Notes: a model not told the origin generated them from the letters alone. Shown: positions 7,920 to 47,759, counted from the stretch's first letter. The stretch: 64,000 nt of DNA from Raillietiella orientalis (GCA_036172245.1 JAYWIR010000013.1:930001-994000); one strand, 5' to 3'. A program made the numbers and translations.

Positions 7920-10433
7920 TCAGCATCAGCGACCGTGTGGTTGCTGGTTCTAATTCCAATAGAGGAAGGGCTGAGGATGGAGGGTGCGTCGTGGATTTCA
8001 AGTCCACCCCAGCAGAATAACGCTGACTGACCCACACTCTTCGGGTGAGGCACTACTGGAAGTCCACGGATGCCTTCCTTTGACTGACCGGGATTGAAAG
8101 TCAACCCCCTGGGGTCCTTCCAGGAATCAAGGAATGCTTCGGGGTTTCCCTCCGGTTGTGAGGATGGAGCCATCCCTCCCCCCTCCACCCGGAGAACCAT
8201 CCATCGATTATCATGAAGCTCATTGATTCCCTCTAGAGAAAAAATTCCAGGAGCGGCTCACGCAAACCTCCAGGATTGACGGTACCGTGCGGGCATAGTC
8301 CGGGCATGCAGAACGGCAGGTTGCGGAGAAAATCAGGGCGAGGGTTCCCTTCGGGGCACCTCTCCCAAGCGCAAGAGGAACGGGCTCCTTCCTCCGAGAC
8401 CCTTCCTGGATTCTTCTCGGGCGTTGCTCCCTATAACTTGGAGAGTTACTGCACGCACCCTCGGATGGCTTCGACAGCGTCAAAGAGCCCCGTGAGTCCC
8501 TCTGAGGCAGGCGGACGGTTCCTCAGCGCTTGGTGGACCAAACAAAAGAAGAAGAAAAAGCTGGAACGAAAGCAGCGAAGACAGGAAAAGAACCCCAAGG
8601 GATTTGCCATCATCATCTTCTGCTGCTGCTCCTCACGACTACCTCGGCGTCAGCACTCGAGGACTTCTTCGAGTTGCTAAGTCGAGGCGCAAGCCTTGAG
8701 GCGAACAGGGCGGAGTCGTCCTTGGTGCCGGTAGGTGCTGCGTGGGGCAGACGGCCGGACTGCACGATCCGCTTGAAGATTCCCACGGGCGCGTACTTGC
8801 AGCACCTTGGTGTTCCGTTGGGGGACGGGGGAGGGATGCTTCCGCGTCGCAGAAGCATCCTGGTCCGGCCTCCTCCAAAAGGTACAGATGTCGCTAGGTC
8901 CGTTGCGGAAGGGCACGTTTCTCTTGCCGGAGACACCCGCTGTGTGTAACGCGTTCGCGACTCTCCTCCTCCGCCCCCTACTTTTCGTTTGCCTTGTCCC
9001 CGTGGAATAAAGAAGAGGACGAAGGACCTCCTGCTCATCGCCCTTTTGGGCAAGGGGAGGCCTCGAGTCCCTTTGATGGACTTGTGCGCTCCGCGTCGAG
9101 ATGATGGTCTAGTCCTCCTGACGCTGGAGCGCATGGAAATTCATCTGCGATGGCGAACCTTGGTGCCATTGCAGCGAAGTTGTGGAGCACACCTTGGTAT
9201 GTTCCAGCCCGCCTCCTCGCCAGACGTGTATCCGGAACGGGAGGACTTGCATCTCATCTCTTATGTCGTGGAAAGAAGATAAGAAGATGCGGCCTTCTCG
9301 GACGAATAGCCACCCTGGAAAAGGAGAATGGATGGTTAATCGCTCCGTCAATTCCAGCGCATGGCTGGAAGAAACAGTTGGCACGTGGGCGGTAGTGAAT
9401 CAGAGGAGCCACGAGACGTGGAATAGCCTGCGACGCGGCCAATACGCCCGCTGCACTTTTCGCGAGATCCTGGAGTGTCCAGCCAGGATCACATGGGCAG
9501 AGACGACCTGCCGAGCGACGGTGCTGCCCTTCCTACGGAGGGCCCTCGTCAGCAGCCGGACGCCGAGGTGGCAAGTCTCTTGCCGTATCACAGGCAGAGA
9601 AAAGTTGATGAGCTATTGGACCATGGGACAGCTGGCGGACGCCACGACCCAGAGCGTCCTTCCGCGAGGACTCAAGAAATGGGGCGAGCTGCTCAGCATC
9701 ACGAGAGATGACCTGGAGTGGCTCCCAGTGATAACCGGAACAAGGATCCTTCCTTAAAGTGGCAGGAGTCGGCGCTTATGCTGTTGCCCTGGGGACTCCC
9801 CTGCAATGTGCGCCGCCACCACTGGACACGGGGACGAGTGACTTCAAACTTTGCCAGGTGTAGGGAGCGGGAATCCCCCCTCACCTCTTAGTTGACTGTG
9901 CTACCCTCTGGCCCCTTTGGGAACGTTTCGGTGCGATCCTAGGGATCCTGGAATGTAGCCCTCTCAGAGACGTTTTTCGGCTCCTCTTCGTGCGGGACGC
10001 CCTGCAGCCAGCCGCTGTCGTAGCAGCTCTCAGCTGCATCCCCGGTATTGTGGCGGCTTGGAGTGGATCCGACGAAGTAGAAGATGCAAACGACAGGGAT
10101 GTCATGGAGTATGCAGCTCGCTTTCTGAGAATAGCAACCCGATGGCCTCACCTGGGAAATCTGCACAAGGACCTCGTCGGCATCCTGCAAAGGATGGAAA
10201 CTCCACAAAGCGGACAGTGATCCCTTCCCGACCCTCCAAAGAACTATGGTTTTTTCTTTTTTCAGTTTTCTTATATTTTCATTTTTGTTTTTCCCCATCC
10301 CCCTCCGCTGACGTGGCGTCAAGTCGGTCTGCGCACCGACCACCCGGCAGTTCCCTAGTGCTATTGGCCGCAGCGGGCCTTGTACCGCAAATACAGAACT
10401 TTTTAATAAACGCCCCGGCTTGATCGGGTGAAA
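7920..10433 (+). mobile_element. L1/Tx1-like LINE, internally deleted and frameshifted, 3' end intact
   Basis: EN remnant, ALEDFFELLS..N..SS, YLQHLGVPLG, RVPLMDLCAPRRDDGL, WQESAL..CARCRE, RWPHLG..DLVGILQRM*, T-rich UTR, AATAAA 10405-10410 and hairpin. Confidence 0.85.
8362..8977. repeat. Inverted repeat pair B, arm 1 (partner 15295-15910)
   Basis: About 616 bp near-identical reverse complement; ORFs 8530-8949 and 15323-15742 differ by one residue. Confidence 0.95.
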
Positions 10434-10539
10434 ACGCAAGACCGGGAAAGAGTTCCTGATTTCGTTGGATACGTTTGCCAAGGTGTGGTGCAAGATTTGT
10501 TCTTTCCCAAGGTCTCGGCAGTAAATACTCAGTTCGAAA

Positions 10540-11190
10540 GGCCGCAGAGCTGCTGCATCACAGACACAGCATAATCTTCTCTGTATATGTACCGTTTAGT
10601 ATATGTACCGCCAAAGCAGCCCGTGTCGGAGGCTTTGTGGTTAAGGCTTCCGCGGGTGGCACCATGCGTTGCGGGTTCGAATACTCTGGCAGAAACTGAC
10701 GCCACTGCTTCGCTGGGTTCCCAGTTTCTCCAGCAATGGCGCTGGTTGGCCGAGACATTCGGGCGTGGCACCGGTAGCGGTTAAAACCAGAGATCCCCGA
10801 TGAAGGCCGGAACAACGGGAGTCGACCTTCGGGTCCTTCCAGGAATCAAGGATTGGGGAGTTCTCCCTCCTGTCGTGCATCGGAGAGCGGACCTCCCCCA
10901 CCGGGGGACCCTTCCGGTTTGAAGATGAAGCAGGAGCCTTCACAGGCACATCTCCAGTTGTTCAAAGGAGCGGACCCCCCCTATCGCGGGGGGGATCCTT
11001 TGAGTCGCCGCCTTTTCAGAGTGTGCAAGGAAGCAAGCGAGAGCGATCCCCCTGCTGGAAGCTGCAGCGCCCCTTCTGAATTTTGGAAGCGTCCCTTCGA
11101 GGTTCTCTTCAGAGGAGTGAACAGGAGCGGTTCCCTTGAGGGTTCCCTCCGGAGAAGAAATTCCTACTAGCGAATCCTTTCTGGGTTCCC
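10540..11190 (+). mobile_element. L1/Tx1-like endonuclease/linker fragment
   Basis: ELLHHRH (~ELLQEIH), GGTTCGAAT block, GGGTCCTTCCAGGAATC block and GGAAGCGTCCCTTCG block shared with other copies. Confidence 0.6.
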
Positions 11191-11214
11191 TTCTTAGAAG
11201 ATGAAATGGAGAGG

Positions 11215-13832: not shown

Positions 13833-16800
13833 TATCACGCGGCTATGCCGGGGCATTTATTATTACATAACATAATAAAAATGCATTTGTGTGGAATGCA
13901 ATGAACCTGCTGAAGAGCGGTGCGCAGGCCGGCGAGGTTCCGCTTTGGCAGAGTGGGAGAGCGAAAACGAAAACAAAAAAAAACAAACAAAACAGGGGAG
14001 GGAAATGTTACACGAGGAGGGGAGGGGGGGACCGAGGAAGGGGTCACACAGTAGGCTTCCTCAGCATCCTGCTCAGGATGCCGGCAAGTTCCGTCCGTAT
14101 AGCGCCCAGGCGGGGCCATCTGGAAGTGGTCTTCAGGAAAGGTCTTCCGCGCCCAGTGGACGGCGTCCCGGACATTTCGACCACTTCTCCCCGCGTTCCA
14201 GGCCACCACCGTCCCGCGAACGGACAGCAGAGAACTGCGAGGGATGAGACTGGCAACAGAGCGGAGCCGCGCACGAAGAGGCGTTTCAAAACATCAATGG
14301 GGGGCCGCCCACCGGAGTTCCTAAGATCGTCGCCAGGAGATCCCAGAGGAGTCGGACAGTCCAACAGCAAGTGCGAGAGGGTCTCCTTCTTCCGCACCTG
14401 TCGCGCTGAGCGTCCGCGCCCTTCCGTGTCCAGTGGTGAACGCGCTCTTTGCACGGGATTCTTTCCCTCCGTGCACCACCAGCAAAGCTGACTCCTACCG
14501 CTTGAGGAGGGGAGGCGCCACTGCTCCAGCACGCTGCGGAGGGGTCACTTCAACTCCTCCGGAGGGATGCCGAGCAGCTCTTCCCAGCGTGGGAGTCCTT
14601 GGGGTGGAACACTCGGGGTCGCAGCGTCCGTCACCTCCCGAGTTGTCGGCGCTCCCACAAGTTTCGCCTTTGCTGCTATGCAGCGCGTCACTTCCCATCT
14701 TACCGGGATCACGCTGTCCCTTGCGTCGCTTAGGGAGGGCAACAGCGGGGCAACGGGGGTGGGGGTGGATGAGGTCCACTGCAACTTGAGCAGGTTGCTC
14801 ACGACCTCCTCCAACGACCTGCAAGCGTTGCAGGCAGGCGTACCCCACCTCGAACCTTTTCCCAATTGACTCCTAGATCCAGGCAGTGCAGTTCTCGCGG
14901 GGAAGCGGGAAATCCAGGTGTTCTTCTCCACCAGGGCAACCATCTGGAAGAGTTGGTACATCCTCAACGTCACCTCGGCAAGCTCTCGTGAGCGACAAGG
15001 AGGGACACGAGTCCCTCGTAGCCGGTTGCGCTCTTCTCGAGGAGTCGTGACGGCGCTCACCAGGGCGTGGTCCATAGTCTCGCCGCGAGAGCGACTCTTC
15101 TGACCTGGACCTTATGCTTCATCCTCCCCAGAGTAAGGGGGACCAGTCCACCATCCTCACGCGGAGCACGCAAGTCTTTGAGTCCGACTCTGGACCTCCC
15201 TTTGCCCCACTGGGCTTTTCTCAGGAGGTCCTCGGTCCGTTTTCTGATGCCCGAGAGAAGGGGGGAGAGAGGCAGGAGGAGCAAACAGAAAGCAGGGGCG
15301 GAGGAGGAGAGTCGCGAACGCGTTACACACAGCGGGTGTCTCCGGCAAGAGAAACGTGCCCTTCCGCAACGGACCTAGCGACATCTGTACCTTTTGGAGG
15401 AGGCCGGACCAGGATGCTTCTGCGACGCGGAAGCATCCCTCCCCCGTCCCCCAACGGAACACCAAGGTGCTGCAAGTACGCGCCCGTGGGAATCTTCAAG
15501 CGGATCGTGCAGTCCGGCCGTCTGCCCCACGCAGCACCTACCGGCACCAAGGACGACTCCGCCCTGTTCGCCTCAAGGCTTGCGCCTCGACTTAGCAACT
15601 CGAAGAAGTCCTCGAGTGCTGACGCCGAGGTAGTCGTGAGGAGCAGCAGCAGAAGATGATGATGGCAAATCCCTTGGGGTTCTTTTCCTGTCTTCGCTGC
15701 TTTCGTTCCAGCTTTTTCTTCTTTTTTTGTTTGGTCCACCAAGCGCTGAGGAACCGTCCGCCTGCCTCAGAGGGACTCACGGGGCTCTTTGACGCTGTCC
15801 AAGCCATCCGAGGGTGCGTGCAGTAACTCTCCAAGTTATAGGGAGCAACGCCCGAGAAGAATCCAGGAAGGGTCCCGGAGGAAGGAGTCCGTTCCTCTTG
15901 CGCTTGGGAGGGAACCCCGTGACTCCCTCTGAGTCGAAGAGAACCCTCCACTCTGGTTGTGTCCCAAGGGAACCCCGAAGGGAAACTCTTTCCTTTTTCG
16001 CTTTCGGGAAAATGAGGAAGGAGAGAGTCACTCCTCATTTCTTGTGCGGAGGGAGGGAACCCGCAAGGGAACTGCTCCCTGCTTCCTCCTCCTCCGAAGA
16101 GAATCCCGAAGGGACGCTTCCCGGTTTCCCTGAAGGGAGGACGCTCTTCTTCGCAGTCTGGAGAGGCGGCATCCATCCACGAGCTGCACGGTAGGAGATG
16201 GAGTGCCTCCCCTGAAGGGGGACGGGACGTCTCCATGTTCACAACTGGAGAAGAGAACCTCCAAGGGCTCCTCGAGTCGTGGAAGGACCCCGGAGGATTG
16301 ACTTGCAATGCCGGCCAGTCATCGGGGGACATCCGGTTTCCACGAGCGCCGCACCCGGAGCCTCCATGGTCAGCCAGAGTCACCTTGCGGGGAGATCTGG
16401 AAGCCATGACGCACCTCCCATTTCTCCGGTGTCGGTCCTTCCCCGGGCGGGATTCGAACCCGCGACGCTTGGTAGTGCCACGCGTGGAGACCGCAGCCAC
16501 GCGTCTCCCGACGCGTCCTCGGCGTTTTCACGTGGAACCGGCGAGGAGATCGCGCTTTCAGGAGAGCCTCCTGGAGACTGCAGGTTCGTTTCGAGAGGAA
16601 AGCTGGAGGGAAGGGAGCGGAGGAGAATCCTGGGAAAAAGGGAGGATTGATCCCACACCGCTCGCCCGTCCGAGCCCGAGCCCCCCGTGGCGTCGGCAAC
16701 CGAACTCAGGAATCCCGGGTGTGGTAGAGCACCCGCGATGAGCCCTACCGGTCGCGCACCACCGAGGGGGAGGAGACCGCGCGATGGGTTCTCGGCAGGC

Positions 16801-19019: not shown

Positions 19020-19340
19020 GTGGCTAGTGCCGAGCGCCGCGGAATCCCTGCGTGGAGGACGCACTCCCAGCAGTACGGGGGGGCGTCGTAGGTTCCAAGT
19101 CACCCCGTAAGATGATGCTGGCTGGCCGCTACGCTCCCGGCGCGAAATTGGTGGAGACCTGCGGATGCTCCTCCGTTGGCTGGCCAGCACTGCAAGTAGG
19201 CTCTCCGCGGTCCTTCCATGAATCGGGCATCCGTTCCTTTCGGGGTCCCTCCCTCTCCAGTTGTGCCGATGGAGCCGTCCTGGATCCATAAGGTGGTCCC
19301 TCCGGGGTTGCCCCCACCACCCACCTCAACTAGAAGAGTG
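19020..19340 (+). mobile_element. L1/Tx1-like endonuclease fragment
   Basis: GGVV..KMMLAGRYAPG followed by the GTCCTTCCATGAATC block shared with other copies. Confidence 0.55.
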
Positions 19341-19850
19341 AAACGCACCCCAAGGTGGCGAGGGCGGCGCCAAAGAGCTCTTCCGCGAGTCCCCCGTAAG
19401 GAGGAGAGGCTCTCCAGCATTCCTTGGGGACCAGGAAACGGGAATTGGCTCCGAGGACGACGTTAGCGCTAACGGACGCCCCTCTTCCTTGGGAGAGAAG
19501 GAGGGAGGGCGCCGACCTCCTCGCCGCCTTCCGTCACGCGGCTTTCTGGGCGCCGTCCGGCACCGGATGGGGTTGGACAGATCCCAGAGGCGTCGCCGCC
19601 ACTGGCCACGACCGTCCGCTCACGCCGTCTCCTTGGTGGAGTCGGGTCGGGAGTCTACGTGCTGTTCCGGGCACGACGACAGCAGGAGCAGCGGTCCGCT
19701 CGGAAAGACAGGAGGGGGAGGGCAGGAAGGGAGGTCAGGACGTGGGTGGAACTCGTGGTTGACTCTCGCCGGTGAAGAATCGGTCGGAAGCATCGCGCTG
19801 CAGCAGATCGCGGCCCGACGCAGCACGCGTGGCCCCGGGCGCAACGTTCC
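19235..19850. repeat. Inverted repeat pair C, arm 1 (partner ~38903-39518)
   Basis: ORFs 19424-19762 and 38991-39329 differ at only 2 of 112 residues. Confidence 0.95.
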
Positions 19851-28200: not shown

Positions 28201-28557
28201 ATCCCAAACGCTAGCAGTCGGTCATTTTTTCTCCTTTTCTGCATTCTCTTGCTCACTCGAGCCACCTGCCCTCCAGCCCGGGAGTGGTCCGTGACGGCAA
28301 GTCGGCCGACAAATTCTCAGCTCATCCGGGACTCCTCGGTCTGGTAGGAGCGAGCGCTCCGCCCTACATCTCCTCGCTTCACCAGCTGCAGCGACCGCTC
28401 CAGCTCCACCGAGGACCCCCAGAATTGGTGCGCGCATCGCCGAAGGAGGGGGGTGGGGGCCTCGAAGATGCAACCGTTCAGCGCGTCTGCAGAGCCAGCA
28501 TCAGTGCCGTTCCGCCTCCAGAGTTCGTCCGGACGCCACTTCCACGTCCCAGCGAGC

Positions 28558-29298
28558 TGCATACTCCATGACATCCCTGTCGTTTGCATCTTCTACTTCG
28601 TCGGATCCACTCCAAGCCGCCACAATACCGGGGATGCAGCTGAGAGCTGCTACGACAGCGGCTGGCTGCAGGGCGTCCCGCACGAAGAGGAGCCGAAAAA
28701 CGTCTCTGAGAGGGCTACATTCCAGGATCCCTAGGATCGCACCGAAACGTTCCCAAAGGGGCCGGAGGGTAGCACAGTCAACTAAGAGGTGAGGGGGGAT
28801 TCCCGCTCCCTACACCTGGCAAAGTTTGAAGTCACTCGTCCCCGTGTCCAGTGGTGGCGGCGCACATTGCAGGGGAGTCCCCAGGGCAACAGCATAAGCG
28901 CCGACTCCTGCCACTTTAGGGGAAGGATCCTTCATGGGGTGGAGTCATGGATGTACTCCAGGGATGTCATGGAGTATGCAGCTCGCTTTCTGAGAATAGC
29001 AACCCGATGTCCCCACCTGGGAAATCTGCACAAGGACCTCGTCGGCATCCTGCAAAGGATGGAAACTCCACAAAGCGGACAGTGATCTCTTCCCGACCCT
29101 CCAAAGAACTATGGTTTTTTCCTTTTTCAGTTTTCTTATATTTTCATTTTTGTTTTTCCCCATCCCCCTCCGCTGACGTGGCGTCAAGTCGGTCTGCGCA
29201 CCGACCACCCGGCAGTTCCCTAGTGCTATTGGCCGCAGCGGGCCTTGTACCGCAAATACAGAACTTTTTAATAAACGCCCCGGCTTGACCGGGTGCAA
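28558..29298 (+). mobile_element. 5'-inverted (twin-primed) L1/Tx1-like insertion with 14-bp TSD
   Basis: TSD ACGTCCCAGCGAGC at 28544-28557 and 29299-29312. 28551-28932 is the reverse complement of 9742-10122; 28959-29298 is a direct match to 10094-10433. Confidence 0.9.
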
Positions 29299-30505: not shown

Positions 30506-30933
30506 TCTTCACTCCGGAAGATCGCATCCCCAGCAGCACTGCGCTGCCCACGTGGAGGGATCATGGCTGCATGGAGCAGCGCAGGAGGAAGCCAGGATGA
30601 CATCCTCTTCCTGAGGACAGCGTCAAGATGGTCCCATCTGGGGATCATAGAACTGGAACCTGTCGACATCCTTACAAGGATGCAGAGGACGCCCTCCAGC
30701 ACCCCCGGTGGCCCCTTCTCGAACCCTCCCCATTTTTTTTCCTATATATTTTTTTTCTTTTCTTTTTCTTTGTCTTCCCCTCCCTTCTGCTGTCGAGACG
30801 AACCTCGCCGGCCTGCTCGCCGGTTCTCGACAGGTTCCCATGGTTACATTTGTAACGTGGCAGGACCAAGCGTCCTTCCACTGAACTGTATGTTGATTTT
30901 TATAAATAAACGCTTTGGCGCAACCGGGTGTCA
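30060..30933 (+). mobile_element. L1/Tx1-like 3' fragment
   Basis: CSRCSE finger, RWSHLG..DILTRM, UTR, AATAAA 30905-30910 and hairpin. Confidence 0.85.
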
Positions 30934-35239: not shown

Positions 35240-37860
35240 TTTGTTCTGGTTCGCAGAGTACCTCAAGAACCGTTGCGCCCCTGGCGGCGGCTCACGCAGC
35301 TCTTTGACGCTGTTCCGCGCCACCTGAGGGTGCCGTGGAATAATGTCAAAAATAGGGAGTACCCCGGGAGGGGTCCGCCCTATGAATCCACGAAGGACTC
35401 AGAGTCTGTTCCTCTCGCACCTGGGGAGGAATCCCCGGAAAAGAGATCACCTCCACCCTGACTCCGAATGGAATCCTGAAGGAAATCTTCCTTATTCTCT
35501 CCGGAGGGATCCCTGGAGAGGTCTGCGCCCATTTTTATTCTTCGAAGGGAACCCGGAAAGGATCCACTACTGAGGATTTCTTCTCCGGAGGGCGAGGAAG
35601 GGAGCCCTAGCGATCGCAGTCGATCTGCATGAAGAGTTCGACTGCGTGGACCAGGAGCTTCCTCTGGAGTTTCCAGCGGCCTTAACAGCTTACCTACGCT
35701 CCTGATGGTGGCCATGCGCTGATAAATGTTTCTTTCAGGGGACAAAACGTGCACGGCGTGCCGGTGCGGCGCGGGATACTGCAGGGCGACAGTCCGAGCC
35801 CCTTGCTCTTCAGTACCTACTTCGAGATGGTGCTGAGGTCATATAGGGCGACTCTAATCACCCTGCCATGTCGACGATCTTCTGTTTCTGCTCCCATGTC
35901 CGTGCTGATGTCAGCACTTGAGGATTTCTTTGAGCTGGTGAGCCACGGGCCTGGACTAAGGGTGAACAGGGCAAAATCGTCGGTGGTGGCGGTTGGTGCG
36001 ACGTCGGCTGAACGGCCTGACTGAATCCGCTCATGCACCCCCACGGCCAGGTGCTTGAAGTAACTTGGCGTTCCGCTGGAGGACTTCTGCCTAGCAGAAT
36101 CCTGGTCAGGTTTGGTCAGGTAGAGACGGAGATCGTCCCGTTCCTGGAGGGCAAGTTTCAGTTGCCGGAACGGGTCGCAATCTGGAACGCATTTGCTGCT
36201 GCTCTCCTTCGTCCCCTACTTTTTGTTTGTTCCGTCCCTCAGAAGATGAAAAAGCGCGCGAAGGACCTTCTGCGCACCGCCTTGTAGGGCAACGGGGAGT
36301 CCGAGTCCCGCTGTCGGACTTGTGCGCTCCGCGTCGGGACAGGGGTCTCGGCCTCCTGGCGCTGGAACGGATGGAAATGCAGGTGCATTGGCGAACCTTG
36401 GTCATTGAAGCAAAGTTGTGGAGCACCCCATGGTGCGTTCTGGCACGTCTTCTCGCCAGCCGTGAGGTCAGACGGAAGGATTCGCGTCTTTCCTCTCGTG
36501 CTCGCGCCCCAAGGTGCGAAGATGCGGTCTTCTCCTGGGTCGCATGGTCACCCTGGCGGAGGAGAACGGCTGGGTGGTCTGCTGTCCCTCCAACTCTAGC
36601 GATTGGTTAAGAGGAAGCAGTTGACACGTAGACGAAGATCTACGAGACGGGAACCGAGGGGTGGAACTCCCTGCGTCTTGACAACCACGCTCGTTGCTCG
36701 CTAAGGAAGGTCCTGGAGTGTCCTGGTAGGAGCACGTGGGCGGAGACAACCCCCCTAGCTGCAACGCTGCCCTTTTTGAGGAGGGCTCTAGACAACAGCC
36801 AAAGATCTCAGAGGGAAGTTTCCTGCGAGATTGGAGGCAAGAAGATGAGTGGTTGGACCACGAGACAGCAAGCGGACGCAACGACCCCTAGTGTCCCTCC
36901 ACGAGGAATACAGCGCTGGGGCTCATTCCATCCGCTGCTTGGCATTCCATCAGAAGAACTGGAGTGAATCTCAGTACTGAAGCACATGATTACCATCCCT
37001 CTGACGTGGCAGGAGTCGGCGCTTCTGCTGTTGCACTGGGATTCCTTTCTTGCAACCCACGCCGACACCACTGGACGCTGGGGAGGGATGAATCCGGACT
37101 GTCGCAGGTGCGAGGAACGGGAATCCTTCCCGCTCCTGCTATTGGACTGTGTTGCCTTCCGACCCCTATGAGAATGTTTTGCAACGATCCTCCGGATGCC
37201 AGCTGGCAGTCCCCCCAGGGACGTTTTACGGCTGCTCTTCGTGTGGTACTCAATCCGCTTATGTATCCCCACAGGCACTTCTGCCGTTGCACTGGGGTCT
37301 CCTATGCAACGTCCTCCGACATCGCTGGGTCCGGAGGGAAAGGGAGAGCCCGAACTGTCGCATGTGCAGGGAACAGGAATCCCCCTCTCGCACCTGCTTT
37401 TGTACTGCTCTGCCCTCCGGCCCCTTCGGAGGGTCGTTTGAGAACAACCCTCCGGATCACGGTTGGTGCCCCCACGGACGTTTTACGACTGCTTGTCGTG
37501 TGGGACGCCCTGCAGCCAGCCGCAGTCCTAGCAGCGCTCTGATGCTTCCTCAGGATTGCGGCGGCCTGGAGCAAGGCCGACAGAGGAGGAAACAGGGGGA
37601 CGCCGTCCAGTTCGCTTTCTGCGGATGGCGGTGCCAGATGGACCCACTTGGGACCTATCAAGACAGACCTATCCTGGATCCTGGAAAGGATGCAGACTCC
37701 CTCGTGGACAGTGGGTCCCTCCCCAAGATTTTCTTTTATTGTTATTTTACCCTTTCTTTTTCTTTTTGCCTTCTCCCTCCCCCTCCGTTGCCGAGGTGGC
37801 TCCTCCGGTCTGCGCACCGACGACAGGACAAAGTGTGGTAGGACCACGTGGTCCTAACAC
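35240..37860 (+). mobile_element. L1/Tx1-like ORF2 RT pseudogene with a second zinc-finger segment in tandem
   Basis: YPGRGPPYE, IAVDL..FDCVD, RRGILQGDSPSPLLF, VDDLLFL, GLRVNRAKS, KVLG/VPL remnant, DLCAPRRDRGLGL; finger region present twice (~37000-37240 and ~37280-37560). Confidence 0.9.
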
Positions 37861-37869
37861 ATTCCGTTT

Positions 37870-38282
37870 TTGTCCTCGGCCGCTGAGGAGCGCATCGCCG
37901 CCGGCTACCGTGCTGCGGGGAGGGGGGGGGGAGGCTGCTGGCGGACGGGGTGCTTTTCGGCTGCCTCTTCAGCAATTCCCGGCTCTTCCCGACCGGGATG
38001 CGAATCGGTCCCATCGGCTAGCGTCCGTCTTCCCCTATATTTGAGAGGTCTCCGCTGGGTTCCAACCTCGTTGGGACGCCGCGCACCGCCGCGAGTTTGC
38101 TCCTTACTCTAAGCTTCCGCTTGAGGACGCTGCCATCCGTGGGTTCAGAGCTAGGGTTCGCGGCACCCACGAATCAAAGTCTCTCCAGCTCTGCCCCACG
38201 GATGGCGTCCTAAAAGTTACGCTCTCTGCTGCCAGGAGCAAGAATGCACCCAAATAAAAAAAAAAAAAAAAAAAAAAAAAAA
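37870..38282 (+). mobile_element. Probable 3' end of an RLE-clade non-LTR element: RLE tail, long hairpin, poly(A)
   Basis: EERIAAGYR..DGVLFGCL..NSRL (~ELxxxGYxV..DAxxVGxLG..N), hairpin 38124-38211, A27 at 38256-38282. Confidence 0.45.
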
Positions 38283-39529: not shown

Positions 39530-40090
39530 ATGAATTCAGGGCGGCTCCGCAGGTAGAAGCAGGCTGTTTCTCTCGTGCTCGCCCTCGCCCCGGTCGTCTC
39601 CGAAGGGAACCCGGAAAGGACTCGCTCCTGGAGTTTCCTCTCCGGAAAGTCCTCCTCCCGTTTCCTCCTCCTGTGAAGAGAACCACCCAGCATGGACGCT
39701 CCTGAATTTCCTCTGAAGGGAGCAGCGCGCTTCTTGTGACTCTGGAGAGGTACGATCCCCGAGGGAGAGTGTCAACCAGGTCCATGATGGGCGGCTCCAT
39801 CGGCACCACTGGAGGGGGGGAAAGGAAACCGAAGGGAAAGGGCGCTTCGATTCCTGGAAGGACCCCAAAGGGTCGACTCTCAATCCCAGCCGGTCAAAGG
39901 GGGGGGGCATCGGCAGGTCTCCACCCGTGCCGCTCCGGGAGCGTGTCGGCCGGCCGTCATCTTACGGGGGAACTCGAAACCCACGATGCCCCCCCTCCCC
40001 CATTTCTCTGAGTGCTTCCTCCACGCGGGGATTCCGTTACGTTCGGCCCCGCAGCCACGTTGGCAGCCGCCAACGTGGCTGCGAGGAACC
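39530..40090 (-). mobile_element. L1/Tx1-like endonuclease/linker fragment
   Basis: KMTAGRHAPG, LRVDPLGSFQES, IMDLVDTL blocks. Confidence 0.55.
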
Positions 40091-40439
40091 ACGTCCTACG
40101 CGCGCGCGCGCGTCCGTGTGACCGGGAAGCGGAAGGCGCAGCGGATGATGATGAGCTCTGGAGCCGTTCGGATTTTATGGGCTAGAAACAAAGTATCGCG
40201 TCTTCGCTCATCCCGCAAGCGGCCGGAAGTCGCAGCCACGAGGAAGCTGGATGCATTTCATCCCGCGACAGTGGACTTTTATGACATCTCCGATTTGAGA
40301 TGAGGACTTCTCGCTCTCGGAGAGACAAAGGAAGAAGATGCGGTGTTTGTTTGTCTTCCGAGTGCTGCAGAGACGAAAACGAGGGAGGGGGGGGGGGGGG
40401 GGAAGGAAGAAGAAGCGAAAAACAAACGAGGAATGCGAA

Positions 40440-41000
40440 GGCAGGCAAACAAGGAACTGGTGAAGACCCGGAAGACAATTCAATTAGGTGACAGCAGCAG
40501 CAGCAGCTGCTGCGGAAACGAGAAACGGAGGAACTGTGGAACGCCGGGGGCGGCTGCTGCAGAGCACGTGCAAACACGAGTGCGTTGCGGAATCCAGGAG
40601 AGCTCCGTTCCTATCTGATTCCCAACTGAATTCGGGCGAAGGTGGGCTGGGGGTTTCTCTTCCTCGTCGGGTGTCCGTTGAATTCGGCAGCAGACAGTAG
40701 CAGCATCTAGAAGGAGCTGCTTCCGAAGCGGCGAAATTTCGCGCGGAGTCCGGGCGGAAGTGGATCATCAACAGCAACCTGTAACAGGGACCGTGCCTCC
40801 GTCGCAAGGACACGCTACACTTTTCGGAGAGGGGGGAGGGGAGGAAGGAACGCATCTTCCAGAGCGCTGCAATCTTCTCGCACGAGGAGCAGCAGCAGCG
40901 TCTCCACCGTCGTCGAAGGTCGCTCCGAGAAACGACTCGCGCGCCCCTGAGAGCTTTTGATGTCCCTTCCGAAGCCTTCAGGCCGGTCAGAGTCATCCCG
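40440..41000 (-). pseudogene. Possible PIF/Harbinger transposase relic
   Basis: LLLDAA/LLPN (~LLGDxAYPL), AR....AF...SRFR, GLHQFL (~LHNFL). Confidence 0.35.
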
Positions 41001-41899
41001 CAGGGAATGCTCGAAACCTACGACGCGCGTCCACTTCCCGGAGTCCATCCTTCCCCGGGTGGGATTCCAAACCCCGCAACGCTCCTCGGTGCCACGCGCG
41101 CACGGCCCCCAGAGCGGGCTCCTCTTCGGCCTTCGAGCCGGTTCGGCCGCGGTGCGCTCCTCGCGTTCCGAGAGGACTTCTGCTTCGGGCAAGCGGAGGG
41201 ACCCAGCACTCGTTCCTCCTCCTTCTCCTCCTACTCTCTCCTGGGTATGGAAGATCAGGGACAAAGCTTCCAGCCGTTTCGAGTCCACCTTCGGAAGGAG
41301 GAGACGAGGATTCGTTACCTTGGACACGTCTTCTTCTCCAGAGGGCACGGTCTCTCTCTCCCTCGACCTCCCCCTCCTTTCCCCTCTGTTTTCTTTTTCA
41401 TTCTCGACTGCTTTTTAGGACGCCGTGCAAACAAAAACTGGCAGCTTCGAGGAGAGTCGAAGGTAAGCGCGCGCGGCTCTTGCACAAATTTACAACGGAC
41501 TCCGTGGCGAATCGCAGCAACTGTTTACATTGGCTGCAAAAAGTGGGAGGAAAAAGAAAAAAAAGATGGACAAAAAAAGAAAGAAGTCAATCGGAAGAAG
41601 AACATGCTTGCAGCATGCGAAGCAGGAGCGCCGAAGAGCTAGCAAAGGAGGGCTCTGCCGAAGCGAGGACGTCGGCAGGTAGTGGCACGTAATGGGGGAG
41701 CTTGGATGTCCCAAGACAATCCACCTCACCTCTCAATTTGCAGTGGTCACTGCGCTGCCCACAATGAGGACCATAGCGTGGCTGCCGCGAGGATCGTATG
41801 CGCACCTAGGTGCGTCCACCCATACTGTCCGTGCTCCGTTGACACGAGAAAGGAGGACGCTAGATTCCCCGGTCGGAGTCGAACGCGGGGAAGGCCGCA

Positions 41900-42600
41900 C
41901 TGCCACCCAGCTGCGCTGGGCCGCGGCCGGAAGGGGCTCCGGAGAAGGGATTCCGTTCCTCTCGCACCTAGGGAGGGATTCCCAAAGGGAACCTCCTCTT
42001 CCTCATTTTCTCCTGGTCTGTGGGGGTCGCTCCATTTTTTCTTCTGAGGAGGGAACCCGCAAAGGATCTGATCCCTGTTTTCTCCTCCTCTGGAGAGAAT
42101 TCCGAAGGGACGCTTCCCGATTTCTCTGAAGGTTCGAAGGGAGTGGCACGCTTCCCTGCACTCTGGAGAGGCGGAGACACACCAACTCTGCGGTACGAGA
42201 CGGAGGGCCCATCCACGAGGGGGAAGGGATGGCTCTTTTGCACAACCGGAGGGGATGGACCCTGAGAGTCGACTCCCAATCCCAGCTACTCGTCGGTGGC
42301 ATCCGGTTTGAACCGTTATCGGTGCCGCTGCACCCGAATGGATGTAGGTCAACCAGCGTCATCTTGCGAGAGGAACTCGAACCCACTACGCACCCCCCAT
42401 TTCTCCGGCGTCCCCGGGCGGGGTTCGAACCCTCTACGCTTGGTGGTGCCATGCGCGGAGACCTTAGTAGCCACATGGCCTCCGACGCAGGTGCTCTCTC
42501 CGCAGCTTCAGTTTTGCTGAGGGCGAAAAACACGAGTTGGTCTCCGGAGCGTCGCTCGAGGGACGGGGATGCAGTTGGGAACTCCTGCTGCTTTCCTCTT
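41900..42600 (-). mobile_element. L1/Tx1-like endonuclease/linker fragment
   Basis: NGGCVV..KMTLVD, FREIGKRPFG blocks as in other copies. Confidence 0.6.
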
Positions 42601-44499
42601 CCGATGCAGAAGCAGGATGTCGGATGCTTGCGCGAATCGGAGGCGAAATTCCTCCGAGGAAGGGGGAACGGGTGCCTCTTCCCTGTGTTGGGGAGGGGGG
42701 GGGGGCAACGTAGGCACGGGGACGCAGGACGGATCTCACGTGCCAGGGGTCTTTGCGCGTGCAGCGTTTCCAGGCAACCAAGGAGCGGAAGTGGAGGCGG
42801 CGGGATGTCTTTCCGCGTCGTCCTGGAAGCGCGCGGTGCGCGTCAGGAAAAAAGAATGCTGGAAGTGGAGACCTGCGGATGCCTCCCCTTTGACTGGCTG
42901 GGATTGGAAGTCGACCTTTTGGGGTCCTCCCAGAAATCGAAGCGCCCGTTCCCTTCGATTTCCTTTCCCCCCCTCCAGCGGTGCCGAGGGAGCCGTCCAT
43001 CATGGACCTAGTGGACACCCTCACTCGGGGATCGCCTCTCCAGAGTTACAAGAGCGCTGCTCCCTACGGGGAGCGCCCTTCAGGCTCTCGTTGCGAGAAG
43101 GTAAACTCGTTAGGCTACGAATGGGATCGTGCTGGGCGCTCTGAGGGACTTGACGACCTCGCCTGTAGGGTCACCCCGCTGCCATCCGGTCGCTGGCTTC
43201 GCGCGTCCAACGTGGAGAAGTGAAGAACTTCCTTCCGGGAGGCAGGTGACCCGAGGAGGCACTACCGGGTGAGCAGCGGTCTCGGCCGCTTCGCGTGCAC
43301 CGAAGGACAGGGGAGGGTCAAAGGCATCCCAGCGGTCGCTTCCTTGTGCCCGCTCGAACGCGTTCCCTTTGGCCCAGAGAAGTCCTTTTGTTCAGGGGAG
43401 TACACGGAAGCGGTGATTACAGTCGATGCAGGCGGATGCTCTCCTTCCTGTAAGCGAGGAAAAAGGAGTCCGTCTTCCCATTCACACACCCCGCCTCCCC
43501 GAAACGGTAACAAGGAGGAGAGAAAGTGGACGCGATGATTTGCACTCAGTCCGCGTCCTAGAAGTGGCTTCCAAGAGCATCCCCTTCCCTCGATAGCAGA
43601 CAGATAGACTCCACTCGAGCACGGTAGCTAAGCAGCCCTCATACTTCCACAGCCCTGCATCCGGAGGAGGCTCTAACAGAAGGGTTCGCGACCGGAGGTG
43701 CGCTCGTAGAGTCCCGGATGGAAGAGCCCCTTCAGATCTGCCTCTTTCCGCTGGCTGCCGCGCGACAGCGAGGGCAGGAACGAGCCAACGCGCCTCTGAG
43801 ACTCCCATTCCGATGTCGTCGCAGCTGCACGTTCCTTGGTCGTTGCCGCCAGCCGCCTGTGGCGCCTTTCCACGGGCGCTCCTGTTGGTGCGATCGCTCG
43901 TTCCCCGCGAGAAGATGGCGTTCTCCATCCACGGCAGCAGATGGCTGTAATAAAACGCCTTCGTCCGCCTCAAGGGCGCCTTTGTTCGCCCCAGGTCGCT
44001 GCCGGTAGGCTCTCTGCTTCGTGAGACCCCCCCCCCCCCAGCTGCTTCCCCTTTTTCTCGCAGAGGAGGCGATGACAACTCCCACTCCCTGACACCGAGC
44101 CGCTGGTAACCCCCATGGAGGAGAGGGAGCAGGTGAGTGAGATCCCCCTTCCTCCCCTCGGCCCTGCCGACGATTTGGCCCCTATGGAGGAGGGAGAACC
44201 GATGAGCGATGCATCCCCTGCTCCTAGCGTCCTGCCCGATCAGGTGGCGGGAGCCCCATTGTTGCTTTCCCAGGATTAGCACCTGGGCTCGCCTGTCGCC
44301 GTCGGATCAGTGTGGCCTGTTGGAACGTCAACGGGCTGCGCGACGACGGCAAGAGACGAGCCCAGGTGCTAATCCTGGGTGCTGATCCTGGCACAGCCGC
44401 CACCCTGAGTGATTTCGACCTGGAGCTCCTGCAGGAGATCCACGTGATCACCTCGGAGAACGCCCAGGAGATCGAGAGGATCGCAGGGGGACGGCTGGT

Positions 44500-45099
44500 T
44501 CTCACCCGGGTGCGCCGGGGCGTTCATTGAAAAACTATCCGGGAACAGAGTTCCCGGACAAAGGATACAGAGAAGACGAAGGGGGTGGGATCCCCGACAC
44601 GCAGGTTGGTATACCGAAAGTCCGGAACGGGAGGGAGGGGACCACAAATACACCAGTATAAAAAATAAAAATAAAACTATGGAGGGCAGGGGACTGGGGT
44701 CTTTGGTACGGCCGTTCCTTCCTTTCAGAACCGGCGATGGATGCCGGCGATCTCTCTCCTCACGCTCTCTGGAAGATGCGCCCACTCGGCTGCCGACGAC
44801 ATGCTGGCGCTGGCTAAGCCGGTGGGCTGACGAAGGATGGCCAGCTTCTCCAGTTGTCGGTGGGCCTTGTCGATGGCGCAGGTGCAACACACGGTTGCAA
44901 CGACAGCACCTAAAGACAGGCCGCCTGGCGTGAAGAAGCGGCGCATCAAGTCTGTTGCGGTGTCCCCCTGCAGCAGGAGAGCTGAGGCCAACCTCCGCCA
45001 CAGTCCTAGGAGGGCACCGCAGTCCAGGAGCAGGTGCGGGAGCGTTTCCACTTCCCCGCACCGCTTACAGTTTGGGGAGACAACTCCCCAAACTGTAAG
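44500..45099 (-). mobile_element. Nested antisense 3' fragment with 8-bp TSD and 19-bp 5' foldback
   Basis: CKRCGEVETLPHLLLDC; CGGCTGGT at 44492-44499 and 45100-45107; hairpin terminus 44503-44522. Confidence 0.82.
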
Positions 45100-45602
45100 C
45101 GGCTGGTGGCTGGTTATCACCCGGGTGCACCGGGGCGTTTATTAAAAACTGGGGATTTCAATCTCCATCTGCTCTTAGGTGAACCTCGAGCACAGGAACT
45201 CACGGCTAACGAGTTGTGCGCCGCTATGCGTGCGCGCAACTTGCAACGTTTTCCTTGACGCCGAGGATCTTCTGCTCTTGCTGCCCATGTCCTCCCCGGA
45301 CATGGGCAGCGGCAGTCGAGGATTTCTTCGATCTGCTGAGCTGCGGGACGGGACTGCGGGTGAACAAGGCAAAGTCGTCGGTGGTGGCGGTAGGTGCGAC
45401 GTGGGTTGGACGGCCTGACTGGATCCGCTTATGCACCCCTACAGCGAGGTACCTGAAGTACCTGGACGTCCCGCTGGGGGACTTCTACCCGTCAGTAGCC
45501 TGGTCAGGTCGTTTCCAAAAAGTAGAGTTGGCGATCGGCCCGTTCCTCGAAGGCAAGTTTCTCCTGCCGGAACGGGCCGCCGTTGGAACGCGTTAGTGAC
45601 CT

Positions 45603-45641
45603 CATCCTCCGCTCCCATCCTCCGCTCCCATCCTCCGCTCC
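45603..45641. repeat. 13-bp tandem triplication
   Basis: CATCCTCCGCTCC x3. Confidence 0.95.
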
Positions 45642-45784
45642 CTGCTTTTTGTTTGCCCCGTCCCCCCCCCCCCCAGTCGAAGAAACGGACGAAGGACCTC
45701 CTCTATATCGCCCTGTGAGGCAAAGGGAGGCCCCGAGTTCTGCTGAAGAACTTGTGCGCTTCGCGTCGGGATGACGGTCTTGGC

Positions 45785-46341
45785 TCCCCCACCTTCTTGT
45801 TGACTGTGCTGCCCTCCGACCCCTGTGGGAACGGTTTGGGACGACCCTCGGGCTCCCTACGGGCAGCGCGCCCAGAGACGTTTTCCGACTTCCCTTCGTG
45901 CGGGACGCCCTGCAGCCAGCCGCAGCCGTGGCAGCATTATGCTGCATCCGAGGCATCGTGGCGGCGTGGAGTGATGCCTGCGACGAAGATGTGGACCAGA
46001 ACAAGAGGGACGTCATCCCGTATGCTGTTCGCTTTCTGACGAGAGCTACTGGATGGCCCCAGCTGGGTACAATTCGAATGGACTTAAAGGGCTTCCTTCG
46101 CAGGATGGGCCCTCCTCACAGTGCACAGTGATCCCTTCCCAGCCCTCCAACTTATTTTTGTTTTCCTTACTTTTTATTTTTCTTTTTGTTTTCTCCCCCA
46201 TCCCTTCCACTGCCGAGGAGAGCCACGTCGGGCTGCGTCCCGGCGTCCCGGCAGGTCCGGCGTTGTGTGGCCGTTAGTGGGGCCTGGTAGCACGTATGTA
46301 GAATGTTTTTTAATAAACGCCCCGGGATTACCCTGGTGGAA
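45785..46341 (+). mobile_element. Nested sense 5'-truncated insertion with 14-bp TSD
   Basis: ATGACGGTCTTGGC at 45771-45784 and 46342-46355; removing the insert restores the host DGLGLL motif. Confidence 0.92.
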
Positions 46342-47759
46342 ATGACGGTCTTGGCCTCCTGATGCTGGAACGGATGGAGATCCATCTGCGATGGCGCACC
46401 ATGGCCATCGCAGCGAAGTACTGGAGCACCCCTTGAGCTTTGCGGCCTGCCTCCTCGCCAGCCGTGTATCCGGGACGCAAGGACTCGCTTCTTATCTTCT
46501 GTGCCGTAGCCGAAAGATCAAAAGATGCGGCCTTCTCCTCGGACGCATGGCCACACTGGCCAAGGAGAACGGCTGGATGGTCTGCAGTCCCATCAACTCC
46601 AGCGCATGGTTGGAGGAAACAATTGGCACGTGGGCGAAGTTGAACGAGAGGAGCCACGAGACGTGGAATCGCCTGCGACGCGGCCAATACGCCCACTGCA
46701 CCCTGCGGAAGATACTAGAGTGTCCCGCCAGGAGCACGTGGGCAGAGACGACCCCCTAGCTACGGCGCTGCCCTTCCAGAGAAGGGCGCTTTTCAGCAGA
46801 CGCATGCCCAGGTGGCAAGTCTCCTGCCGTATCGCAGGCAGAGAAAACTTGATGAGCTATTGGACCATGGGACAGCTGGCGGACGCCACGACCCCGAGAG
46901 TCCTTCCACGAGGACTCAAGAAATGGGGCGAGCTGCTCGGCATCACGACGGATGACCTGAAGTGGCCCCGGTGTTGACTGGATCATGCATCCTCCCCCTG
47001 AAGTGGCAGGAGTCGGCGCTTCTGCTGTTGCATTGGGGTCTTCCCTGCAACGCATGCCTCCACCACTGGACCCGGGGACGAGTGGATCCGGAGTGCACCA
47101 GATGCGGGGAGCGGGAGTCCCTCTCTCATCTGATTGTTGACTGTGTTGCCCTCCGACCCCTCTGGGAACGTTTTGGGACGACTCTGGGGATCCCGGTTGG
47201 CAGCCCCTCTAGAGACGTTTTCCGGTTTCTCTTCGTGCGGGACGCCCTGCATCCAGCCGCGGCCCTGGCAGCACTTTGCTGCGCTCGAGGGATTATGACT
47301 GGCTGGAGCGAAGTCAGAAGTCCAAACCACGAGAGGGATGTCGTCGAACTCGCAGCCCGTTACCTGCGGATTATGACCAGATGGCCCCACCTGGGCAGAA
47401 TTCGGATGGATCTCGATGGCATCCTGCAAAGGATGGACCCCCCTCCTCCCATCCCTTCCCTTCCCTCCAAAGCCTTTTTCTCATCTATTTTTTGTTTTAT
47501 TTTTCTTTTTGTTTTTTCCCCCATTCCCTTCCGCTGCAGAGGAGAGTGGCGCCGGTCTGCGTACCGGCGACCCAGCAGGGGGTCCTGTTGTGTTGGCCGT
47601 AGTGGGGCCTCGTACCACGAATTTATAGAGAAGTTATAATAAACGACCCGGCGTAACCGGGTGGCAACCAGCGGAGGCAATTGATTGCGAATTCCCCCGA
47701 GGTATCTGGATGAGCACATCTCCCCCGCTTTCCTGGTTCTACGCCGCTTGGGCACGGGA

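Follow-up and report, generated by a model that had tools for sequence, protein, structure and literature searches.

Scattered through one 64,000-nt stretch of Raillietiella orientalis DNA (the window, whose ten or eleven copies are our sample of the family) are LINE 3' ends made of an AATAAA-like hexamer, a GC-rich hairpin and a closing NNA (Table 1). The original prediction had placed ten such sites, and all ten are present. Each is preceded by the C-terminus of ORF2 (RT and then a CCHC knuckle) and by a 3' UTR of about 215 nt; a second hairpin, SL1, lies upstream of the terminal one. An eleventh copy lacks a clean terminal motif and has in its place a degenerate CGCCGCCGGCTACCGTG at 37896-37912 (1 of 11 copies). 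5' truncation, within the RT or beyond it, affects every copy in the window; the shortest is about 150 bp long and the longest exceeds 2 kb. Some are entangled with one another: the divergent copy ending at 30933 was the target hit by the insertion that ends at 29298, and the copy ending at 44500, which has a 17-nt inverted duplication at its 5' end, integrated directly downstream of the copy at 45115.

Table 1. Features of the LINE family in the window
Feature	Position	Strand	Remark
Terminal motif (AATAAA, hairpin, NNA)	10405..10433	+	pattern and covariance model
Copy ending at 10433	at least 8352-10433	+	collinear with ORF2
Terminal motif, 3' arm with G>C mismatch	13833..13861	-	pattern and covariance model
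Copy ending at 13833	about 13833-15919	-	collinear with ORF2
Terminal motif, hexamer AAGGAA	21117..21145	+	copy about 20392-21145
Young 741-bp insertion	28558..29298	+	98-99% identical to 9742-10436
29298 insertion, its two parts	inverted 28558-28932; direct 28959-29298	+	twin priming
29298 insertion, terminal motif	29270-29298	+	
14-bp TSD ACGTCCCAGCGAGC of 29298 insertion	5' copy 28544..28557; 3' copy 29299-29312	+	
Single ACGTCCCAGCGAGC at paralogous empty site	1971-1984	-	
Terminal motif, 5' arm CTTTGG, three G-U wobbles	30905..30933	+	divergent copy
Terminal motif, one extra C, hexamer AAGAAA	32806..32835	+	covariance model
Copy of about 600 bp	44500..45100	-	terminal motif 44500-44528
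TSD ACCAGCC of 44500 copy	45101-45107 (tandem repeat 45108-45114) and 44493-44499		
Terminal motif of very short copy	45115..45143	-	copy about 150 bp or less
557-bp insertion within the 47666 copy	45785..46341	+	terminal motif 46312-46341, shifted 3'-arm variant
TSD ATGACGGTCTTGGC of 46341 insertion	45771-45784 and 46342-46355	+	
Uninterrupted paralogous site for 46341 insertion	9101-9114		
Terminal motif with C>A at 47646	47638..47666	+	covariance model
Copy ending at 47666	45262-45784 plus 46342-47666	+	collinear with ORF2
Eleventh copy	37272..37912	+	ORF2 C-terminus and SL1
Last base of the ten motifs (A, 3 nt past GGTG)	10433, 21145, 29298, 30933, 32835, 46341, 47666	+	
Last base, continued	13833, 44500, 45115	-	
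SL1, 6-bp stem, loop CUGCGY	10323..10340	+	95-125 nt before end
SL1, other copies	21031-21048, 29188-29205, 30807-30824, 32709-32726, 37804-37821, 46227-46244, 47551-47568		
SL1, other copies	13916-13933, 44593-44610, 45228-45245	-	
Open frame with ORF2 C-terminus	46956..47636	+	CX2CX7HX4C zinc knuckle, weak zf-RVT match
Longest RT-bearing piece	35601..36612	+	P0014 residues 221-577, about 59% identity
RT domain 4 motif	within 35686-36021	+	

What kind of element is this? It had been called L1-like, and RT matches made through the relative P0014, collinearity with ORF2 and the hallmarks of integration bear that out. Collinear matches to P0001 and P0014 lie upstream of the ends, those to P0014 on four of the window's copies. 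Taken by itself, the RT fragment in the window is a weak match to RVT_1 (E 0.005, 16.9 bits, cut-off 29.6); it aligns with 61% identity, across 92% of the fragment, to P0014, which matches RVT_1 at E 4.7e-24 and has human L1 ORF2p as its best solved match (E 7e-40 over 395 residues; R2, 7e-17). The solved-structure comparison lacked references for RTE, CR1, L2, I and Jockey, so it lends support, not proof, to an RT that by its sequence would be of the L1-superfamily type. Most of the 120 long P0014 relatives listed (at most 31% identity) combine PF03372, PF00078 and PF13966. No Exo_endo_phos match occurs in the truncated window copies, and P0014 is itself without its N-terminus. The zinc knuckle falls below the zf-RVT cut-off in the window (E 0.003, 18.7 bits; cut-off 27.5), with CX2CX7HX4C readable in translation; phmmer matches to this region themselves exceed that cut-off, and its Atlas neighbours are zf-RVT clusters. 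The open frame that carries the knuckle extends through the T-rich 3' UTR, and a stop near residue 165, where the other copies have theirs, is probably the real one. In a tree of 38 rows (P0014 with the named and the top unnamed among the 120 matches listed, and no labelled Tx1 reference), P0014 belongs to none of the plant, fungal and animal groups sampled, has a long branch (1.68) and is in no starred set. Metagenome scans found no relatives.

The bare inverted repeat, allowed two mismatches, matches 29 times in the window where 24.8 are expected, which is not above chance. The full 25-nt pattern (AAYGCCCCGGN5CCGGGTGNNA, with up to three mismatches) matches 8 times in the window against 0.17 expected, a count that none of 100 shuffles reached, and the remaining two motifs (32835 and 46341) are one-base indel variants that complete the ten. 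A covariance model built from the ten recovers all of them at 38.1-49.6 bits and yields nothing else in the window, its next match being at 12.9 bits (E 0.86). Judged by sequence, the family comprises several deeply diverged subfamilies, whose proteins share only 30-64% identity and whose 3'-terminal arms are conserved nonetheless, and such conservation of the 3'-terminal sequence across diverged lineages is a mark of the stringent type of LINE. Mean pairwise identity (36 pairs of nine copies, one near-duplicate dropped) is 0.79 and 0.88 in the arms, 0.45 in the loop, 0.31 at NN, 0.30 in the middle of the UTR and 0.28 in the flank. The loop of about 5 nt (CTTGA twice, CATAG, AATAC, CGCAA twice, CGCAC, TGCAC, GATTA(C) and CGTAA in the ten copies) varies as freely, relative to its arms, as had been predicted. 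A SINE partner with the LINE tail is not found in the window, where the model matches only the ten LINE ends. The window also holds a tRNA-like repeat, which is without the LINE tail; one window is a small sample.

Are these motifs the true ends of what was inserted? Three ends had been described as bounded by TSDs, and they are: 29298 and 46341 (14 bp each) and 44500 (7 bp). For 29298 and 46341, paralogous empty sites are available, and both filled/empty pairs have 14-bp TSDs and put the ends at GGTGCAA/A and GGTGGAA/A (the slash marking the junction), so that the predicted terminus, exactly 3 nt past GGTG and without an A-tail, is confirmed in these two comparisons. The second A at both junctions is already in the empty site and need not derive from a tail. 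A hairpin standing at empty sites as target sequence was the result that would have counted against the original prediction; we looked for it at both paralogous empty sites, and it is absent, so the hairpin belongs to the insert and not to the target. One might still imagine, from a weak flank consensus (A-C-C-A-G-C; C at 7/10, A at 7/10 positions) and from the two copies that sit directly downstream of another copy's 3' end, that the hairpin is a preferred target for Tx1-style site-specific insertion, or else that tails were lost after insertion and the motif is not the true terminus. The two filled/empty comparisons already contradict this; moreover, the three mapped targets (ACGTCCCAGCGAGC, ATGACGGTCTTGGC and ACCAGCC) all differ, as those of a single Tx1-type target would not, and the perfect 14-bp TSDs abut NNA with no space for a former tail. 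We consider the idea exceedingly improbable.

How the copies arrived is also legible. TSDs of 14, 14 and 7 bp (about 7-20 bp is usual for the L1 superfamily), variable 5' truncation and a 5' inversion are the integration hallmarks of that superfamily, and the 14-bp TSDs, the truncation and the twin-priming inversion fit TPRT. At the inversion point, the element can pair with the last 7 nt of ACGTCCCAGCGAGC, which are its complement (a 7-nt microhomology). In an independent DNA run, a contig matches the 3' UTR up to 29303 and then diverges from the window. The poly(A) tail typical of L1 is found at none of the ten ends; no A-run follows the motif in any of them, and there are never more than two As at a junction.

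Does the pairing of the terminal hairpin matter? Stem changes had been said to keep pairing for the most part, and that is right for six C>T changes, which give G-U wobbles (there is no G>A), and for the C>A at 47646, which can pair with a bulged U; it is not right for the copy ending at 13833, where G>C disrupts one pair with no compensatory change, and one copy is a shifted variant. C>T is the commonest decay mutation, and all six wobble changes are of this kind; at least one (10433 versus 29298) is probably recent. Across the ten copies, none of the six pairs has changed on both sides, and the covariation score, with 95% of cells paired, is reached by 364 of 500 shuffles. A second register is nearly as good (90% of cells paired). 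The terminal hairpins fold at between -4.9 and -12.4 kcal/mol, a modest stability, with z from -2.3 to +0.4 and below -2 in only two of ten.

These are the facts that a skeptic would cite for a terminal motif kept simply as linear sequence (for example, as a site for priming or for the binding of a protein, read from RNA or from cDNA/DNA), its inverted repeat incidental or at work at the DNA level, with no RNA hairpin: no compensatory change, a score that does not exceed shuffles, two competing registers and z-scores mostly above -1.5. The skeptic could add that a classic recognition hairpin would keep its loop and let its stem vary, as SL1 does, whereas here the stem is conserved and the loop is free. 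We nevertheless think this quite unlikely, because the two arms are kept and the 5 nt that separate them are free to vary, because the six arm transitions all fall on C (to G-U) and none on G (to A-C) and because the 46341 indel variant, its register shifted, still forms a 7-bp hairpin at -10 kcal/mol. What supports the terminal hairpin is its conserved arms around a free loop and the six C>T against zero G>A. SL1 appears to covary modestly: both sides have changed in four of its six pairs, and its score of 0.337 (0.213 in shuffles) is reached by 18 of 500 shuffles.

We give a probability of roughly 0.55 to the reading that a single L1-superfamily family left the ten 5'-truncated copies, each with the motif as its 3' terminus, and that this family is of the stringent type, in which a structured 3' UTR is recognised and priming takes place at the terminal A. 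The ORF2 protein would recognise SL1, with its CUGCG loop, together with the predicted terminal GC hairpin; cDNA synthesis would start at the terminal A; and the primer would be a target nick just 5' of an A, whose bottom-strand T-3'OH makes a 1-nt A:T match. Priming at that base would mean that no tail is copied. All ten copies have A as the terminal base, and nine have a further A after it, just as predicted, the 32835 copy being the sole exception.

What sets the end of the RNA? Probably, it would be the conserved AAUAAA 23 nt upstream, and because the AATAAA is conserved at that distance, the RNA may be polyadenylated. The hexamer is exact in 7 of 10 copies and differs by one or two bases in the other three, a T-run lies upstream and the distance from hexamer to terminus is always 23 nt, except in the two indel variants, where it is 24. 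Cleavage sites typically lie 10-30 nt past AATAAA, a range into which 23 nt falls. With the As at the terminus, this could describe an ordinary polyadenylated Pol II transcript cut at the invariant A, on which the RT either starts at the body/tail junction, with the hairpin as ruler or stop, or uses just the first A, or the first two, for priming; the 3' end would then be structured yet not "non-polyadenylated," its tail simply never copied. L1-type elements that prime on tails, however, leave A-runs of variable length, and here no junction has more than two As, including those of the two insertions with perfect 14-bp TSDs, where the second A was there beforehand. We hold such a transcript to be unlikely but a serious contender. 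The proposal that a structured, non-polyadenylated end primes TPRT survives, then, in its tail-less DNA copies and its TPRT hallmarks; non-adenylation of the RNA remains putative, given the AATAAA spacing, as does action of the terminal repeat as an RNA hairpin, given the absence of compensatory changes.

One may go further and imagine, from the same sequences, a defined non-adenylated RNA end a few nucleotides past the terminal stem-loop, with the start of cDNA measured from the hairpin and a 1-nt A:T match. Replication-dependent histone mRNAs have a comparable layout, with a non-adenylated end just past a terminal stem-loop. We find this doubtful, but if true, nature would offer an L1-type element with no dependence on poly(A) at all, and with it a direct system for testing how L1 ORF2p switched between choosing templates by structure and choosing them by poly(A).

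How does the family compare with known systems, as the cited literature describes them? The original prediction's division, poly(A) for mammalian L1 and a stem-loop for the L2 clade, is incomplete, since L1-clade 3' hairpins and repeat-less ends have been published (PMC3472496). It had also been said that an RT from a clade already known to end this way would weigh against the claim, and these L1-clade families go part of the way there. A plant L1 lineage ("stringent" L1; maize LINE1-1_ZM, ZmSINE2/3) has a conserved 3' hairpin with compensatory changes (Ohshima 2012, Mol Biol Evol, PMC3472496; 2013 review, PMC3747384). Shared with it are an L1-type ORF2, a stretch of 3' UTR that diverged lineages have kept and that folds into a hairpin, a conserved-loop hairpin with compensatory stem changes (here SL1) and, apparently in both, 3'-end-specific initiation by the RT. 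The plant elements, as described there, have poly(A) after the hairpin and a tail common to SINEs, whereas the window family has no tail and no SINE partner seen in the window; their hairpin has compensatory changes, whereas our terminal hairpin has none; and their conserved nucleotides are a UCU loop and CGAG, against a CUGCG loop and CCCCGG/CCGGGTG here. There are also the L1-clade families without a 3' repeat (5/15 green-algal and 9/233 flowering-plant Repbase families, against poly(A) tails in 2/15 and 224/233; PMC3472496, Table 1), which share copies that end without poly(A) or other repeat, a comparison made by those counts alone.

Stringent LINEs of the L2 clade (eel UnaL2, zebrafish ZfL2) depend on a 3' stem-loop near the terminus for recognition by the ORF2 protein that they themselves encode (PMC4176376; PMC3747384), and that stem-loop and freedom from poly(A) would be shared by our family, where they are predicted. 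Those elements, by the same accounts, belong to another RT clade and carry at their ends tandem repeats of a short unit, for instance (TGTAA)n, that serve template slippage, whereas the window family has no repeats; the TSD of ZfL2-1 is 5 bp (PMC4245944) versus 14 bp here. Mammalian L1 resembles the window family in RT fold and RT sequence, in having TSDs of some 14 bp, 5' truncation and twin-priming inversion and, as proposed here, in a nick exposing a T that pairs with the terminal A, but it requires and copies poly(A) and has no known conserved terminal hairpin (PMC3747384). With the Tx1 group, there is a common domain order (APE-type EN, RT, CCHC, as seen in relatives), and some window copies sit directly behind another copy's end; target specificity defines that group, whereas this family has three different TSD sequences. 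The hairpin-ended, tail-less LINE 3' end is real, and its style is one already described for L1-type elements.

How does a LINE in this window come to its end? All ten copies (named here by the last base) close with an AATAAA-like hexamer, an inverted repeat and NNA, and the sites and loop sequences listed in the original prediction are all present. The window is ~60% G+C, and at this composition the inverted repeat alone has no specificity (29 matches with up to two mismatches vs. 24.8 expected). The longer pattern AAYGCCCCGG-N5-CCGGGTG-NNA, allowed up to three mismatches, gives eight matches vs. 0.17 expected, a count reached in 0 of 100 shuffles, and the remaining two sites (ends 32835 and 46341) are one-base insertion variants of the full motif. 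A covariance model made from the ten terminal 35-mers and run unfiltered across the entire window recovers the ten ends at 38.1-49.6 bits; the next match scores 12.9 bits (E 0.86). The hexamer is exactly AATAAA in seven copies, the third base after GGTG is A in all ten, and the base after the terminus is A in nine of ten when the ends are aligned, as predicted. In other words, the terminal motif is real and well delimited.

Searches farther afield returned little that resembles it. Rfam at gathering thresholds gave no match; a scan of metagenome proteins matched 598 pattern stretches, none confirmed, and a metagenome scan with the T-run, AATAAA and the 5' arm gave 15 matches, none with the 3' arm. 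The motif pattern matched singly at least 120 times in a prokaryote contig collection (the 80 titles among the matches listed are all unrelated bacteria) and six times in a viral one, and we read these as chance hits of a 17-base GC hairpin in huge collections, not as relatives. A search of sequencing runs listed no RNA run; one DNA run shares 0.08 of sampled words with the window and gave 1220 short contigs matching it at 80-99% likeness, one of which departs from the window sequence within 5 nt of a LINE terminus; these contigs show only that the LINE family exists elsewhere.

Self-comparison of the window shows 8-48 kb to be a nest of diverged, 5'-truncated repeats. A CX2CX7HX4C knuckle is readable in the frame at 46956-47636, with a weak zf-RVT match (18.7 bits vs. 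a cut-off of 27.5), and a tblastn search with this frame locates its counterpart, at 30-64% identity, 450-650 nt before eight of the ten termini and once more in an eleventh copy (37272-37836); this ORF2 C-terminal region has no tblastn match at the very short 45115 copy and only a partial one at the 29298 copy. A weak RVT_1 fragment at 35686-36021 is 61% identical to P0014, a metagenome protein of 619 amino acids encoded, along with P0002, on a 2870-bp contig. P0014 is collinear on four window copies and holds a full reverse transcriptase (RVT_1, E 4.7e-24). Among solved structures, P0014 matches human L1 ORF2p best (E 7e-40 across 395 residues; R2 scores 7e-17); most of its 120 long relatives among the matches listed (at most 31% identity) carry an APE-type endonuclease, RVT_1 and zf-RVT, and a tree of 38 of the listed rows places it on a long branch, apart from the plant, fungal and animal groups that were sampled. 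Because of the knuckle and reverse transcriptase frames, the P0014 match, the likeness of P0014 to L1 ORF2p and the domains of its relatives, the family is, as judged from sequence, a member of the L1 superfamily, in keeping with the L1-like identity first proposed; on the evidence of the reverse transcriptase, the Tx1-like part of that label is no more than possible. A full reverse transcriptase or endonuclease is absent from the window; Pfam on 129 + 57 long ORFs gave nothing at E ≤0.001, and the short ORFs upstream of the copies held no further domain of either kind. The C-terminal ORF found 11 phmmer matches among 1.84 billion representatives (one below 1e-10), for which cluster look-ups supplied no names, and fragments from the window itself had no significant match in the PDB (E 0.3 or worse). 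Three stretches that match P0014 at 28-29% identity (see the table) belong either to an L1-like lineage that has diverged much further or to the 30933 copy, as its upstream part.

Where, exactly, does the element stop? For two insertions a paralogous empty site is available for comparison. That ending at 29298 breaks a repeat whose unbroken duplicate lies at 767-2016 on the opposite strand; the sequence at the empty site is TTCC-ACGTCCCAGCGAGC-GGC, and the filled site has 14 bp of it, the insert, GGGTGCAA and then the same 14 bp again. For that ending at 46341, which terminates in CCCTGGTGGAA, two other copies, one of them at 9101-9114, are uninterrupted. At both, the terminus falls 3 nt past GGTG with no A-run, as claimed (or 4 nt past it, should the TSD's first A belong to the element), and the hairpin is not a target sequence, being absent from both paralogous empty sites. 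The 5' part of the 29298 insertion is inverted, and at the inversion point the element is complementary to the final 7 nt of the target's TSD; an inversion with target complementarity is the expected signature of twin priming in L1. These junction features are characteristic of L1-type TPRT.

Several smaller observations belong beside the junctions. In the 29298 insertion, ~26 nt separating the inverted half from the direct one match neither and may have been added as filler where twin priming joined the two. The 44500 copy opens, at its 5' junction, with a perfect inverted duplication (17 nt) of its own initial bases (GCTTACAGTTTGGGGAG / CTCCCCAAACTGTAAGC), which resembles a micro-inversion or a small snap-back. 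A weak consensus, A-C-C-A-G-C, is apparent in the first 6 nt past the termini (three ends have ACCAGC in full; at single positions A 9/10, C 7/10 and A 7/10), and two copies directly adjoin another copy's 3' end; together, these may reflect a mild nick-site preference. A candidate TSD of the 13833 copy (a 12-mer with one mismatch at 15663) was rejected, the homology to copy A extending beyond it.

Features of the window, in window coordinates
Feature	Position	Strand	Detail
LINE insertion	28558-29298	+	98-99% identical to 9742-10436
Unmatched stretch	28933-28958		within the 29298 insertion
LINE insertion	45785-46341	+	within the copy ending at 47666; TSD ATGACGGTCTTGGC on both sides
LINE copy 44500		-	7-bp TSD ACCAGCC; immediately behind the end of the 45115 copy
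5' duplication, 44500 copy	45060-45100	-	17 nt
Flank consensus (examples)	44494-44499, 45109-45114, 47667-47672		first 6 nt past the terminus
P0014 matches, 28-29%	26822-27336, 29699-29971	+	
P0014 match, 28-29%	1312-1584	-	
tRNA-like repeat	16036-16514, 42033-42488, 40969-41098, 31021-31080	-	family of ~480 bp
Inverted duplication	767-1984 / 30516-29299		99.7%; provides the empty site of the 29298 insertion
Inverted duplication	19235-19888 / 39518-38865		98.5%
Inverted duplication	8352-9135 / 15919-15120		91%; links two LINE copies
Inverted duplication	4552-4756 / 6971-6767		94%
Depth spike	34670-35336		81
Depth spike	40006-40672		400
Depth spike	41340-42006		255

Is the terminal repeat really a hairpin? 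Across nine copies (one near-duplicate left out), mean identity is 0.79 and 0.88 in the arms, 0.45 in the loop, 0.31 at NN, 0.30 in the mid-UTR and 0.28 in the flank. Most stem changes had been said to keep pairing, and this stands insofar as the arm transitions are six C>T (each leaving a G-U pair) and no G>A; the 46341 indel variant can still fold. Compensatory double changes number zero: no pair is changed on both sides, and the covariation score is reached by 364 of 500 shuffles. An alternative pairing register fits nearly as well, and folding energies run from -4.9 to -12.4 kcal/mol (z -2.3 to +0.4). Judged on these ten copies, a terminal RNA hairpin is no more than plausible. Alignment of the last 140 nt reveals a second conserved block 95-125 nt upstream of the end, absent from the original prediction, which holds SL1, a 6-bp stem with the loop CUGCG(Y), at 10323-10340 and at ten other positions. 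When the near-duplicate is dropped and the eleventh copy included, four of its six pairs are changed on both sides (U-A, C-G, G-C, A-U), 78% of cells are paired (13 of 500 shuffles attain this), and the covariation score is 0.337 vs. 0.213 for shuffles, 18 of 500 of which attain it. Support for SL1 as a structure is modest, the sequences being related to one another, though better than that for the terminal hairpin, and a conserved loop on a free stem is the classic pattern of a recognition hairpin.

Taken together, our best reading, drawn from sequence comparison, is an L1-like element of the stringent type (that is, with 3'-end-specific recognition of RNA by the ORF2 protein). ORF2p would bind the structured 3' UTR, and cDNA synthesis would start at the terminal A, primed by a target nick placed 5' of an A. 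The original prediction, TPRT from a structured, non-polyadenylated end, is partly supported: TPRT hallmarks and the lack of an A-run in the DNA agree with it, and a non-adenylated RNA is possible. The RNA may instead be tailed, with the tail simply left uncopied, because the conserved AAUAAA stands a constant 23 nt upstream of the terminus, the normal spacing for cleavage and polyadenylation.

The window holds other repeats. One family has a tRNA-like T-arm (GGTTCGAATCC with a matching stem), in which, as elsewhere in the window, ARAGORN finds no tRNA; it shares no LINE tail and was rejected as a SINE partner of this LINE, and it may be a SINE of tRNA origin that belongs with some other partner. 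The four inverted duplications (91-99.7% identity) are recent, and the 8352-9135 / 15919-15120 pair suggests a mosaic or gene conversion because the two LINE copies that it links are only ~65% alike in their downstream parts. Summed contig depth in the one DNA run is ~3-40 outside three spikes, which coincide with T-rich or A-rich low-complexity stretches and therefore represent high-copy simple repeats, not the LINE.

As a precise marker of the LINE's 3' boundary, the motif should serve in annotating a repeat-rich genome, in TSD calling and in the search for non-autonomous partners. A limited literature search found neither the motif nor an L1-type family ending directly at an AAUAAA-preceded hairpin. 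The gain is incremental, since the literature already has both hairpin tails in the L1 clade and L1-clade families that lack 3' repeats. Passages of Ohshima 2012 (PMC3472496) and the 2013 review (PMC3747384) describe a plant L1 lineage whose conserved 3' hairpin has compensatory changes, and the former tabulates L1-clade families by 3' repeat, its green-algal row reading 15, 2, 8, 5 (poly(A) in 2/15, no 3' repeat in 5/15). An identity as a Zepp-like green-algal centromeric L1 (PMC8226300) was set aside; L1-1_CR/ZeppL and Zepp terminate in poly(A) (PMC3472496). Tail-less L1-type LINEs and those with a 3' hairpin both being published, the contrast first drawn between L1 (poly(A)) and L2 (stem-loop) oversimplifies. 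Should initiation truly be directed by the structured 3' UTR, this family would be a clean L1-type case needing no poly(A), and it would bear on Ohshima's proposal, set out in passages of the same two papers, that the ancestral state of the L1 clade was stringent recognition, which mammals and plants relaxed independently of each other.
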